Source: Chloroflexota bacterium (GTDB taxonomy: Bacteria; Chloroflexota; UBA11872; VXOZ01). Taken from it: 64,000 nt of DNA. Of the stretch, positions 41,275-45,200 are shown one piece after another. A program made the position numbers and the translations under genes. The stretch lies in assembly GCA_965221905.1 (NCBI GenBank), contig OZ244922.1, forward strand, positions 3,136,001 to 3,200,000, written 5' to 3'. Each line of letters begins with the position of its first letter. Positions within the stretch are counted from its first letter, which is position 1. The notes under the pieces were generated by a model. The model was not told where the DNA came from, searched no databases, and saw only the letters and a program-made list of their open reading frames with translations.

Positions 41275-41529
41275 ATGGCGATGTTTGATACGCACAAGGC
41301 GATAAAAACCCTTACGGGCACGGGCTTCAATGAATCCCAGGCTGAGGCGCTCGTGGACTTGGTGGGCGCAGAGCGAGGCGAACTCGTTACTAAGTCAGAC
41401 CTCCGGACAGAACTACAGGCGTTGGAATTGCGTATTGAAAAGCGATTTCACCAGTTAACGATTCAGCTTGTTTTGTTGTTTGTCGCGTTAGCAGGTGTGT
41501 TAACCGCACTGGAGCTAATACCGCAATAG
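41275..41529 (+). CDS. Small coiled-coil protein with C-terminal TM (DUF1640/CCDC90-like)
   Basis: FDTH...K.L...GF...QAEA, LVTK.DL. Confidence 0.75.
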   Translation: MAMFDTHKAIKTLTGTGFNESQAEALVDLVGAERGELVTKSDLRTELQALELRIEKRFHQLTIQLVLLFVALAGVLTALELIPQ

Positions 41530-41595: not shown

Positions 41596-41628
41596 AAAAG
41601 CCCGCTACTGTCGTAGCGGGCTCTTTTT
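41596..41628. terminator. Bidirectional intrinsic terminator
   Basis: AAAAGCCCGCTAC-TGTC-GTAGCGGGCTCTTTTT between convergent genes. Confidence 0.8.
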
Positions 41629-41650
41629 CCTAAAATACGGGCACACTCTT

Positions 41651-42115
41651 TCACCCAGCCTTGAGGCTCTCCGCGTATTCAGAAATGAATGCGTCGACCT
41701 TGTCGCCCTTCAAGTCTCCCGGGCGAAAGTCGCGCAGCGCTTGCACCGCATCCGCCGGCGCGTAGCCTTCGTACTTCACCAAATAACCTGCCAGGACCGT
41801 ACCGGCCCCGCCGAATCCGGAGCCTCAGTGGATGAGGGCTTTGTCGTCGCGCATGGCCGCCGCGTGCAGGGACTCAATGGCGGCATCGAGCGTCGCCAAA
41901 TCGCTGCTGGCGCCATCAAACTGATCGACGGTCATGCCCAGGCGTTCGATGGCGGCCGTATCCGGGTCCTTACTCGACGCGGCGACGATGTGCGTAATGC
42001 CCTGTGCTGCCACCGCGCGCAGTTCCTCCTCGGTATCCGGAAAACCGGAGGCGGCGAACTTGCCTTCCTCGAACCACTTGAAGATCTGTGGCAACGTCTG
42101 TGCATTCTCAGCCAT
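41651..42115 (-). CDS. Dual-specificity/PTP phosphatase-fold protein with in-frame TGA (codon 97) at the catalytic Cys; candidate selenoprotein, 154 aa
   Basis: KALIH-U-GSGFGGAGTVLAGYLVKYEGYAPADAVQALRDFRPGDLKGDKVDAFISEYAESLKAG*; N-terminal F.W...G.FAASGFP. Confidence 0.75.
41792..41810 (-). promoter_or_regulatory. Candidate bacterial SECIS hairpin
   Basis: CGGGGCCG-GUA-CGGUCCUG; apical loop begins with GU, 22 nt after the UGA. Confidence 0.55.
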
Positions 42116-42286
42116 AATCCCCTTCCTTTCAATTCAGCAATACAGTAAGACTACAGTACGATTCAAAGCTGCAATACTCTCTCGTTGTAGTGTTGGTGCT
42201 CCTCATGCGGAGCGGTTCAGCCCTGCTACTTTCTCATCGAGGTCCACTTTTGCCTTATCGCATCGTCCTCAGACCGGAGTAAGTCC

Positions 42287-45200
42287 TTAGGCGCGCACCA
42301 CACCGAGGGTAACCGACAAGCCGTTGAGATCCACGACTTCCTGATGAGCCCCGTCGGGAGCAAAGGACGACTCCACACGTACGGATAGCGTTTCCTGAGC
42401 AACGGCCTCACTATGCGTGCGCAGCATCGCCGCGACGTTAGCGCGTCCTTCCGCGCCGTCGGCTACACCGATATAGGTCACGATGCGGTCGGAGAGGTTG
42501 AAGTCAGCCTCGCGCCGCAGATTCTGGACGTGATGAATGAGTTCACGTGCCATGCCTTCCCGCTCGAGGTCCGGCGAAATCTCCGTGTGGAGAGCGACGA
42601 GATACCCTTCTTCAGTTGCCACGCTATAGTCTGCGCGCTCCCGCGCCTGCACGTCCACTTCCTCGGGCCGCAGCTCGATAGGTTGTCCGTCCACTACAAC
42701 CGCGATCGGCTGACCTTCCGCTACCAGTCGCGCGCCGACCTGGGCGTCGCTCTGTCGGAGAGCCGCCGCGATTGCTTTCACCTGCCTCCCATACTTGGGG
42801 CCGAGCAAATTGAAGCGGGGCTTGAGTTCGTACGTTACAAGCTCCTCTTCCGGCCCGACGAAGCGGAGCGACTTCACGTTTAGTTCACTGAGGATGTGGT
42901 CTTGCAGGCGTCCTAGCCCCTCCAGCTCGTCGGCGGTCTTTGCGTGGACCAGCATCTCCGGCAGGGGTTGGCGCACTTTGATCTTGCTGGTGCTGCGCGC
43001 GGCGCGACCCAGGCCTACGATGCGTTGCGCGAGCTCCATGTGGACAAGCAGGTCTTCGTCAATGAGCGATGCGTTGTAGCGCGGCCACTCCGTATGGTGA
43101 ATGCTCTCCGGCGCGGCGCTATCCACCGAGCGCACGAGATTCTGGTAAACCTCTTCACTGAGGAACGGCATGATGGGCGCTATTGTGCGCGTCAGCGTGG
43201 TGAGCACCTCATAGAGTGTGACATATGCCGACATGGTGTCCCGGTCCTGCCCGGACTTCCAATACCGTCGGCGACCTCGCCGCACGTACCACGTGGATAA
43301 CTGCTCGATGAAACTGTTGACCCGCCGTGCAACGCTGTAGGCATCGAACTGCTCCAGGTCGTTGGTTACGTCCCGCACGAGTTTGTGGAGCAGCGCAATA
43401 ATCCAGCGGTCCATCAGCGACCGCACTTCGAGCGGCACACTGACGTTGGTAGGGTCAAAGTCCTCCAAGCGGGCATACGTCACGAAGAAATTATAAATAT
43501 TCCAGAAGAGCAGCAGCCGCCGCTTAACGTCTTGGGCCACCGCGTAGCCAAAATTCAGGTTCTGCTGGGTATTGCTCTCGCAGTACAGCCAGCGCATCAC
43601 GTCCGCGCCCATCTTCTCCACGGCTTCATCGAACCAGATGGCATTGCCGTGGCTCTTGTGCATCGGTTTGCCATGCTCATCATTGACTTTTTCGTAGATG
43701 AGCACGTTGCGGTAAGCACGAACGTCTTCCAAGGTAACGCTCATGAAGGCGAGGGCGTAGAACCAAAGGCGAATCTGCTCGCGCATCTCGCTGATGAAGT
43801 CAGCAGGGAACCAGTTGCCCCACTCGCTGCTGCCCTCCAGGTAGCCGTTCGTGGAAAAGGGCACGATTCCGGCATCCAGCCAGCAGTCGCCGACTTCCGG
43901 GATACGCGCGGTCTCGCCGTTGCACTGCTCGCAGTGGACTTTGATTTCATCGATCCACGGGCGATGGAGTTCCGGCAGCGCGCGCACCTTTGCGGCGTCA
44001 ACTGCCCGCTCTTCAAGCTCCTGCACAGTGCCGACGATTGTGACGTGGTCGCAGCTCTCGCAATGGTAGAATGGCAGCGGCAGGCCCCAGAAGCGCTTGC
44101 GCGAGATGCACCAGTCGCCCATGTTGTTTAGCCAGTCGTCCATGCGCTTCCCACCGTACTCAGGCACCCACTCCACGGTCTGGTTTTCCGCAAGCATACG
44201 CTCGCGGATCTCCTCAGCGGAAATAAACCACTCTTCTACCAGGCGAAAGGCGACTTCCGCCCCGCAGCGCCAGCACACCGGGTAGCGGTGGGTATAGTCC
44301 TCGATGCGGTAGACCAACTCGGCTTTGCCAAGCGCGTCGAAGATCATCTCATTCGTATCGGTTATGCTTCGGCCTGTGAGTGGGCCGAACCCATCGACGT
44401 AGTTGCCGTCGCCGTCAATCGGCACGATGACGTGGAGCCCATATTCCTGCGAAAGCTCGTAGTCTTCCGCGCCGCACCCCGGCGCGATGTGGACGATGCC
44501 GGTGCCCTCTTCCTCGCCCACGTTCTCCCACGCGACCACCTTGGTGAGGAAGTCTTGCTGTACCGGTAAATCGTGCCAGGGCCCTGTGTACTCAAGACCA
44601 ACCAGTTCGGCGCCTTTGAGTTCGCGGACAGCGGTGAGCTTGCCGCGCCCAACGCTCTCTAGCGTGCCTTTCGAGAGGTAGTACGTGTTGCCATCGGCTT
44701 CGGCAGCCACATAGGTCAAGTCGGGATGCACGGCCAGCGCGGTGTTTGCAGCGAGCGTCCACGGCGTAGTCGTCCAGACGAGAATGTACTCGTTCGCGCG
44801 GCCCTTAATCGGAAGCCGCAGCGTGATGCCCGGGTGGGTGACTTCGCGGTAGGTGTCGGTACCAACCAACTCATGCTGCGAGAGGCTGGTGCCGCAGCGG
44901 ATGCACCAGGGCATCGAGCGCCAGCCCTTGTAAAGCCAGCCCTTCTCGTGGCAGCGCTTGAGGAAATACCAAATATGCTCGATATTGGTATCGTCCATGG
45001 TGTAGTACGAGTTGTCCCAGTCCATCCACTGGCCGAGCCGGATGGACTGGTTCGTCTGCACGCTGGAGAAATGCTCCACCCGTTTGCGACACTCGCGGGA
45101 GAAGTTATCGAGGCCGAATTCCTCAATTTCATGCTTAGAATCGAAACCGAGGTCGCGTTCGACCTCGACTTCCAGCCAAAGTCCCTGGCAATCGAAACCG

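Follow-up and report, generated by a model that had tools for sequence, protein, structure and literature searches.

The window analysed here is a stretch of 64,000 nucleotides from a Chloroflexota bacterium (assembly GCA_965221905.1, contig OZ244922.1, positions 3,136,001 to 3,200,000), and its minus strand carries a gene that almost certainly encodes a 154-residue selenoprotein on the dual-specificity phosphatase (DSP) fold, with selenocysteine (Sec) at the position of the catalytic cysteine. By sequence comparison, SelB-dependent insertion of Sec at codon 97, the DSP fold, a selenol at the start of the active-site cradle and the absence of the residues for phosphate-ester chemistry are strongly supported. 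We consider it highly likely that this is a genuine Sec protein which no longer acts as a conventional phosphatase; a redox role in particular is a tentative proposal. An earlier note on this DNA, made from the letters alone, had read the gene as a Sec-containing protein of the protein tyrosine phosphatase (PTP) and DSP fold, and this core reading agrees with the conservation of the TGA, the selection on the gene, the downstream hairpin, the Sec machinery, the predicted fold and the Cys homologues. The coordinates of all features are collected in Table 1.

The 96-codon open reading frame (ORF) on the minus strand (42115-41828) ends in ...DDKALIH-TGA, with its stop codon at 41827-41825. When this TGA is read through, 57 further codons follow, in the form GSGFGGAGTVLAGYL...AVQALRDFRPG..., up to a second TGA at 41653-41651; the full continuation is GSGFGGAGTVLAGYLVKYEGYAPADAVQALRDFRPGDLKGDKVDAFISEYAESLKAG. 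The earlier note had described the ORF ending in KALIH-TGA, its 57-codon extension, a hairpin behind the TGA and a terminator behind the extended stop, and all four were found in place. In a set of 61 related genomes, the in-frame TGA is kept in the host genome and in all 16 other species of its genus (77-95% identity, or 77-99% over all 17), and it is likewise kept in nine of nine species of a second genus, which belongs to a different family of the same class (43-45% identity). This amounts to 26 of 26 orthologues, and a search of 98 genomes of the class returned the same 26 and no Sec form in the remaining 72. Of 401 genomes sampled evenly across the phylum, only the 11 that belong to the window's genus had the TGA form, and 13 others had Cys homologues without stops.

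Both halves of the extended frame are under the same selection. For the 17 same-genus genes, the mean ratio of nonsynonymous to synonymous substitution rates (dN/dS) was 0.110 upstream of the TGA (87 aligned codons) and 0.097 downstream of it, past the hairpin (43 codons), with a synonymous rate dS of about 0.9 on either side. Between the two genera, the amino-acid identity is 45% upstream and 45% downstream of the TGA. The equal dN/dS and the equal identity indicate that the downstream half is translated and selected like the upstream half. A TGA confined to one strain and followed by decaying sequence, which the earlier note had raised as one of the findings that would overturn its proposal, is thus not what these genomes contain. 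Logan contigs from four runs of different studies, one of them probably the source of the assembly and two of them metatranscriptome libraries, cover the region including both halves. These contigs show many third-position differences across the region and none at 41825-41827, so that neither TGC nor TGT, the mark of an assembly error, was found there. In contigs from related strains, the match runs out at 41651, i.e., at the second TGA and not at the first.

Downstream of the UGA, the predicted RNA hairpin consists of CGGGGCCG (41810-41803), a GTA loop (41802-41800) and CGGTCCTG (41799-41792), and the GUA loop begins 22 nt after the UGA, a spacing that is the same in the second genus. The published model of bacterial Sec insertion sequence (SECIS) elements asks for a loop of 3-9 nt, an upper stem of 4-16 bp, a G in the first two loop positions, a distance of 16-37 nt from the UGA and a minimum free energy of at most -7.5 kcal/mol, as quoted in a figure legend (PMC13188914, Fig. 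2). The hairpin lies within all of the limits quoted there in 26 of 26 Sec forms, and the fold energy of the hairpin alone is -11.1 kcal/mol here and -11.9 kcal/mol in the second genus. As a control, a model-compliant hairpin occurred in only 1 of 18 Cys homologues, and the others had either a weaker hairpin at the equivalent place (6/18) or none (11/18). The hairpin is identical in all 17 same-genus genomes and takes the form GGGGCCG-GUA-CGGCCCU (7 bp) in the second genus, the sole difference in the arms being a change from GTC to GCC (Val to Ala) by which a G-U pair becomes a G-C pair. Codons +6 to +9 (GGG GCC GGT ACG), all four-fold degenerate, are identical in the 26 orthologues, whereas neighbouring Gly codons vary freely. 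Among degenerate codons of invariant residues in the 17 same-genus genes, synonymous change was seen in 0 of 8 at positions +5 to +12 vs 65 of 74 elsewhere (Fisher p = 6.8e-7). The retention of the TGA, the frozen synonymous sites and the hairpin counts of Sec vs Cys forms are far beyond chance. The proposal of a SECIS hairpin with a G-first loop 22 nt downstream thus gains from both the fit to the quoted model and the constraint at the nucleotide level. A genome-wide scan for a TGA flanked by open frame and accompanied by a GU-loop hairpin with 7 bp or more returned 33 places, of which, by eye, only selD and the gene in the window look coding.

As a separate observation on the UGA context, codons -5, -4, -1 and +1 (AAA, GCC, CAC and GGC; window 41828-41842 and 41822-41824) show no synonymous variation among the 17 same-genus genes, which hints at a constrained context extending beyond the hairpin.

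The host genome, a single contig of 3.52 Mb from a bacterium known solely through metagenome assembly, contains the complete Sec pathway, the absence of which would have spoken against the proposal of the earlier note. It comprises selA (PF03841, 468 bits; TIGR00474, E = 6.1e-170), selB with the SelB-specific wing domain (wing 3, 62.6 bits) in a 626-residue frame, selC as a tRNA-Sec with the anticodon TCA, and selD (380 bits). The selD gene (G000:C1:1231935-1232864, minus strand, G000 being the host genome) has an in-frame TGA of its own in the context ...CAG-U-AGKLGP, and 33 nt after this UGA it carries the hairpin CGCGCAG-GUU-CUGCGCG, which is very similar in style to the one in the window. 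In the class, selA is present in 86 of 98 genomes, so that the narrow distribution of the Sec form is not explained by the Sec trait itself.

Two side observations concern the Sec genes of these genomes. In one class member (G043), selA at G043:C1:2965091-2966415 falls into two adjacent pieces that cover model positions 1-258 and 253-454, which suggests a frameshifted or split gene. Furthermore, two paralogous, secreted-looking thioredoxin-fold genes (TlpA/redoxin-like) of the host genome, near 415027 (plus strand) and 2782195 (minus strand) of G000:C1, show a U-x-x-C motif whose U is an in-frame TGA (WTYG-U-INC and WTYT-U-PVC) and are probably UxxC selenoproteins of a known type. They were picked by eye among the matches listed from a codon-usage screen for in-frame-TGA genes whose 377 candidates were mostly antisense artefacts and do not form an inventory.

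The read-through protein has the fold that the earlier note had suggested. The Pfam models PTP-SAK (PF22784, 5.8e-15, residues 10-123) and DSPc (PF00782, 1e-8, residues 34-133) both span the TGA with scores above their cut-offs, and no NCBIfam model scored above its cut-off for the read-through protein. Against solved structures, a profile of ten orthologues matched 25xa ("dual specificity protein phosphatase family protein") at 4.5e-20 and human DUSP23 at 5.7e-18. An AlphaFold2 model from the ten-orthologue alignment reached a mean predicted local distance difference test score of 82.2 and a predicted template modelling (TM) score of 0.79, and its top Foldseek matches in the PDB were DUSP23/VHZ (2img and 4erc; TM 0.80-0.83), followed by ShufPTP, SsoPTP and Tk-PTP. 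All Foldseek matches listed to rank 50 are phosphatases of the PTP/DSP superfamily, and the rhodanese domain PF00581 gave no match at E <= 1. In the same model, the 96-residue ORF alone ends one residue before the nucleophile and lacks half of the fold, with three of its helices.

For the comparison of active sites, 11 Sec forms were aligned with 72 Cys homologues, namely 18 from genomes of the phylum and 54 single-domain matches among the top-ranked hits (P0033-P0109) of a search of 1.84 billion representative proteins; one of the 72 rows stems from an unpublished genome (G264, locus L041), and no claim hangs on it. The TGA aligns with Cys in all 72, and codon 97, for which the earlier note had asked whether homologues hold TGA or Cys, is thus TGA in the 26 orthologues and Cys in every Cys homologue. 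The position of the nucleophilic Cys of CX5R phosphatases is occupied by a UGA (Sec), a chemically analogous nucleophile and not literally a Cys. The earlier note had also remarked on the lack of the P-loop Arg, and the Arg column holds R in 72 of 72 Cys forms vs G in all 11 aligned Sec forms and in all 26 orthologues (Gly103 here). The next column is T in 66 of 72 Cys forms vs A in 11 of 11 Sec forms. Overall, the Cys homologues all carry HCxxGxGR, mostly with the Asp of the D-loop, and the 11 Sec forms read HUGxG[FY]GGAG; all 26 orthologues share the loop pattern H-U-G-[SGA]-G-[FY]-G-G-A-G-T.

The losses extend beyond the P-loop. The D-loop of the Cys forms reads H-[LI]-P-[VI]-x-D-F-[TS]-A-P-T, and a deletion of three residues in the Sec forms, with variable flanks, removes the segment with the Asp; in the profile alignment to PDB 25xa, the same deletion appears as an insertion of 'lpd' relative to the Sec profile. 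In the S-[IV]-E-T segment, S in 65 of 72 Cys forms contrasts with D in 11 of 11 Sec forms (D-L-x-G), and a Gln conserved in 68 of 72 Cys forms is replaced by V in all 11. With Arg, Thr, the general-acid Asp and Gln lost in the clade, the Sec form is probably not a phosphatase and most likely not a phosphoester hydrolase, and the suggestion of the earlier note that its chemistry is not phosphate hydrolysis is strengthened by the missing Asp, Thr and Gln. The codons for the Gly and Ala that stand in for Arg and Thr belong to the hairpin's 5' arm, whereas Asp, Ser and Gln were lost at sites outside of it, 30 codons before the UGA and 37-43 codons after it, which argues for a real change of function. 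No Cys residue is present in the window's protein or in the second-genus proteins inspected, and some same-genus orthologues have one Cys at the variable residue 34.

In a maximum-likelihood tree, computed by a quick method with the loop columns kept in, the Sec forms group together on a single long branch (SH-aLRT 99, length 0.97 changes per site). All nine second-genus genomes carry, in addition to the Sec form, a canonical paralogue with Cys, Arg and Asp (32-37% identity to the query; e.g., L056-L058 in G050, G040 and G020), which is placed elsewhere in the tree, and in the 17 genomes of the window's genus the same query found only the Sec form. As the second genus keeps both, the Sec form has not simply taken the place of that enzyme. 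Among the Cys homologues, the nearest ones are canonical phosphatases that share at most 37% identity. A Cys orthologue with an Arg-less loop was not found among 148 of the best 150 of 850 matches (E <= 1e-3) in the 1.84-billion-protein representative search. HCx5R occurs in every full-length protein among the 148 (152 motif instances), with the exception of P0144, where an HC motif is absent, and the remaining ones without HCx5R are P0031, P0035, P0038 and P0068, which end in ...L[IVL]H, and one C-terminal fragment. To our knowledge, there is no Cys-containing equivalent of the Arg-less Sec form.

All public entries of the Sec form that were seen are annotated as truncated proteins. P0004 and P0026, which were listed outside the 148 scanned, likewise end in ...L[IVL]H. 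When the read-through protein was used as a query, a word-indexed search of 5.8 billion proteins yielded 25 matches, all of them truncated (24 of 96 residues and one of 114). A profile of five divergent N-terminal halves gave 46 matches at E <= 1e-10, all of at most 115 residues; 43 of them terminate in L[IVL]H, and "hypothetical protein" is the only name given to any of the 46. These proteins indicate several further lineages of the family with 39-55% identity; the divergent ones (P0031, P0038, P0068 and P0185-P0189) are known from protein ends in ...L[IVL]H only and not from DNA. In the N-terminal halves of five divergent lineages Asp72 is invariant, and Lys13 (of FKWF) is Gln in some members. 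A metagenome scan yielded 28 loci with a single Sec form (L064), a count that says little on abundance as one of the two search patterns contained Cys and was blind to TGA.

Based on these data, a working mechanism can be proposed. The gene most likely encodes a single cytoplasmic protein of 154 residues with an atypical DSP fold of the DUSP23/VHZ type, and SelB and tRNA-Sec would recode its UGA 97 under the direction of the 8-bp GUA-triloop hairpin inside the active-site loop codons. The selenol of Sec97 would be placed as is the catalytic thiolate of Cys phosphatases, at the start of the strand-loop-helix anion cradle, and would be activated by the backbone amides of the Gly-rich loop and the helix dipole. 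It could then react with an oxidant or chalcogen donor, such as a peroxide, a disulfide or persulfide, or a selenium or sulfur species, which would turn the selenol into a selenenic acid, a selenenyl-sulfide or a perselenide. When PTPs are oxidised, ring closure onto the adjacent backbone nitrogen gives a cyclic sulfenamide. By analogy, a cyclic selenenylamide with the nitrogen of the invariant Gly98 might form, and such an Se-N species is chemically plausible; the entry title of PDB 9e9m, a close structural match, names a cyclic sulfenamide. Recycling of Sec97 would require an external thiol because neither the window's protein nor the inspected second-genus proteins contain a Cys. It is possible, if doubtful, that this is the first natural selenoenzyme on a PTP/DSP scaffold, in which Sec was gained while Arg, Asp, Thr and Gln were dropped and the P-loop cradle was turned into a site for selenium redox chemistry or chalcogen transfer. 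As an example, the protein may act as a peroxidase or reductase via a selenenic acid or the Gly98 selenenylamide, which would be a natural counterpart of the PTP sulfenamide and of ebselen-type catalysts.

Other functions have to be weighed against this redox proposal. Sec97 might serve as a sulfur or selenium carrier or transferase that takes up sulfane sulfur or selenium as an Se-S or Se-Se adduct and passes it on as a rhodanese does, with a possible role in selenium delivery to SelD or in detoxification; we regard this as unlikely. A strand-loop-helix cradle with the nucleophile at its start is the active-site geometry of rhodanese and Cdc25 and would suit such a carrier, as would the loss of the phosphate-specific loop residues and the lack of a resolving Cys. 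The accessible text of a 2026 inventory of prokaryotic selenoproteins lists five rhodanese-like forms, several of them with UxxG (PMC13188914), and the UGSG found here resembles these. However, the Foldseek matches listed to rank 50 make the fold that of a DSP and not of a rhodanese, and no gene of sulfur or selenium metabolism adjoins the gene in either genus. That the protein is still a phosphatase or phosphotransferase, with Sec97 attacking phosphorus and Lys13 or Asp72 replacing Arg and Asp, perhaps on an unusual substrate, appears improbable. Arg, Thr, Asp and Gln were lost together, the Arg being invariant in the 72 Cys homologues, the occurrence of Gln in place of Lys13 shows that the latter is no essential substitute, and the second genus retains a canonical Cys/Arg paralogue. 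This has to be set against the conservation of the whole fold and the nucleophile position and the invariance of Asp72 in the five divergent lineages; moreover, the backbone amides of a PTP loop bind anions and could still do so here.

A non-catalytic role, i.e., a pseudophosphatase whose reactive selenol acts as a redox sensor or binding module and controls partner binding by its oxidation state, is quite improbable. Pseudophosphatases of the PTP/DSP fold are common and PTP active sites are well-known redox switches, in line with the sulfenamide in the title of 9e9m, but all 26 orthologues maintain the costly recoding for Sec, which points to a need for a reactive selenol and not just for binding, and no partner gene is conserved nearby. 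Finally, the TGA might be a true stop, with the 96-residue fragment as the product, or else the gene might be a pseudogene or misassembled, and what follows the TGA would be a relic; this is extremely improbable. The truncated calls of all 25 matches to the read-through query and of 43 of the 46 N-half matches would fit, although they reflect gene callers and not experiments, as would the unexceptional fold energy of the 60 nt after the UGA. Against a true stop stand a TGA kept down to 43% identity, the equal dN/dS and identity on its two sides, the agreement of the contigs of four runs on TGA together with a related-strain similarity that ends at the second TGA, and a 96-residue fragment that would lack the nucleophile and half of the fold. 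A nonsense mutation, a pseudogene or an assembly error was accordingly ruled out by TGA conservation, equal selection on the halves and contig agreement. A global reassignment of UGA was set aside as well, in view of the gene's own terminal TGA, past which related strains stop matching, and of the tRNA-Sec and full Sec pathway.

Several points weigh against the overall reading of the gene or parts of it. Concerning decoding, the contigs from RNA libraries attest presence only, may derive from DNA and are silent on how the UGA is decoded, and the same-genus genomes are not independent of one another. In a comparison with shuffled sequences, the fold energy of the 60 nt that follow the UGA was unremarkable for this G+C-rich sequence (z = -0.14, with 72 of 200 shuffles folding at least as well), and the thermodynamic test is thus uninformative. 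The hairpin had no counterpart in Rfam, which may simply lack models of bacterial SECIS elements, and a scan of 41600-42200 gave five weak matches, all on the terminator hairpin and far below gathering scores. The covariation support consists of one one-sided change between two hairpin variants among the DNA compared, so that the evidence is mostly one of conservation. Concerning function, the proposal is drawn from residue losses without a positive signature, the active-site geometry is taken from homology, and the Sec protein appears to have no resolving Cys. RNA constraints may have contributed to the changes from Arg to Gly and from Thr to Ala. In addition, no neighbourhood common to both genera was found that would give a functional hint.

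Table 1. Features of the selenoprotein gene and its surroundings in the window (positions of the 64,000-nucleotide stretch)
Feature	Position	Strand	Remarks
Sec-containing DSP-fold protein, full coding sequence, 154 residues (almost certain)	41654..42115	-	ATG 42115-42113; Sec codon 97; last sense codon 41656-41654
In-frame TGA, read as Sec97, at the catalytic Cys position of HCxxGxGR phosphatases	41825..41827	-	
Terminal TGA of the extended frame	41651..41653	-	related-strain contigs (X4, X17) stop matching at 41651
Candidate bacterial SECIS core	41792..41810	-	stem CGGGGCCG/CGGUCCUG, 8 bp including 2 G-U; apical loop GUA
Active-site loop codons H96-U97-G-S-G-F-G-G103-A104-G-T106	41798..41830	-	Gly103 in the place of the P-loop Arg; Ala104 in the place of Thr
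Shortened D-loop Q65-F-D-G68	41912..41923	-	3-residue deletion in Sec forms removes the P[VI]xD general-acid segment
Putative Shine-Dalgarno-like purine-rich stretch AAGGAAGGGG	42119..42128	-	ends 3 nt before the ATG; seen in sequence
G+C-rich palindromic hairpin, 10 bp, between two convergent genes	41599..41622	.	

The palindromic hairpin at 41599-41622, which is located beyond the extended stop and not beyond the internal TGA, was listed by the scan as terminator-like on the plus strand, where its tail is CTTTTTCC, and on the minus strand it is followed by TTTAGATT. It is probably a bidirectional terminator common to the selenoprotein gene and a convergent ORF of 84 residues (window 41275-41529, plus strand), for which no Pfam match was obtained at E <= 1e-5. 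In the window's genus, the selenoprotein gene comes after ileS and is convergent with the 84-residue ORF, and its neighbours in the second genus are a DUF2961 gene on one side and a GFO/IDH/MocA oxidoreductase gene on the other. In the related-strain contig X17 from an RNA library, an unrelated stretch of 104 letters takes the place of the 106 bases between ileS and the selenoprotein gene (window 42183-42290), whereas the two coding regions are preserved, which indicates that the intergenic spacer diverges fast.

When compared with known systems, the protein is closest to the DUSP23/VHZ-like DSPs (PF22784 and PF00782; 2img, 4erc and 25xa; SsoPTP and Tk-PTP). It shares with them the fold (TM 0.80-0.83), a length of about 150 residues, the order of strand, nucleophile, Gly-rich loop and helix, a His ahead of the nucleophile, G-x-G and G-T in the loop, R..R in the last helices, and the conserved Trp14. 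It differs in having Sec for Cys, Gly for Arg and Ala for Thr, a D-loop that is three residues shorter and without the general-acid Asp, D-L-x-G..V in place of S-[IV]-E-T..Q, and a SECIS hairpin within the P-loop codons. Some enzymes with a cradle loop perform sulfur transfer or arsenate reduction instead of phosphate hydrolysis. In rhodanese and Cdc25 as well as in the low-molecular-weight PTP (LMW-PTP) and ArsC enzymes, the nucleophile also starts an anion-binding loop at a helix N-terminus, but these have other folds, as judged from the Foldseek matches listed to rank 50. Moreover, ArsC- and Cdc25-type enzymes keep the loop Arg, and ArsC of the LMW-PTP type needs a further Cys, which neither the window's protein nor the inspected second-genus proteins possess. 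With STYX-type pseudophosphatases, the protein has a DSP fold with missing catalytic residues in common; STYX-type proteins lose the nucleophile, whereas here all 26 orthologues have Sec at the nucleophile position and it is the phosphate-specific residues that are lost.

Known bacterial selenoproteins such as SelD, the Prx-like UxxC redoxins and the rhodanese-like UxxG proteins, as given in Table 1 of the inventory (PMC13188914), resemble the present case in having a UGA at the catalytic Cys of their homologues, a small hairpin with a G-first loop 16-37 nt downstream, a restriction to genomes with selABCD, and truncation by automatic annotation. In contrast to most known entries, no Cys orthologue with the same Arg-less loop was found. 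This table comprises 119 prokaryotic selenoprotein families or subfamilies, including rhodanese-like, ArsC-like and many thioredoxin-fold ones. PF00782, PF22784 or a PTP/DSP description are absent from it, and the word "phosphatase" occurs 0 times in the main text of the same paper. In the accessible text of the GOS paper, "phosphatase" is used solely for the PP2C part of a fusion with a peroxiredoxin (PMC2398784), and that of deep-Sep lists no phosphatase (PMC12013277). A full-text search of the main texts of papers returned none with both "selenocysteine" and "CX5R", and further full-text searches brought up nothing relevant. This points to a selenoprotein family that is not on the published 119-family list. 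The combination of Sec and the DSP fold with a remodelled active site is not described in the main texts of the sources searched, and prior mention elsewhere is possible.

Few enzyme superfamilies have been studied as well as the Cys phosphatases, whose catalytic Cys is a textbook example of a redox switch, and a natural Sec version of this fold is found neither in the 119-family inventory nor in NCBIfam or the full-text literature searched. The gene also offers a clean case of a SECIS element that is embedded in the codons of an active-site loop and co-evolves with them. If the protein is made as predicted, it would add a new fold class to the selenoproteome, and it would set right 43 or more database clusters that now stand as truncated "hypothetical protein" entries. 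It would also be a natural experiment on a selenol in the PTP cradle without the phosphate-specific residues, and as such it would bear on the questions of why organisms pay for Sec and how enzyme scaffolds switch their chemistry.

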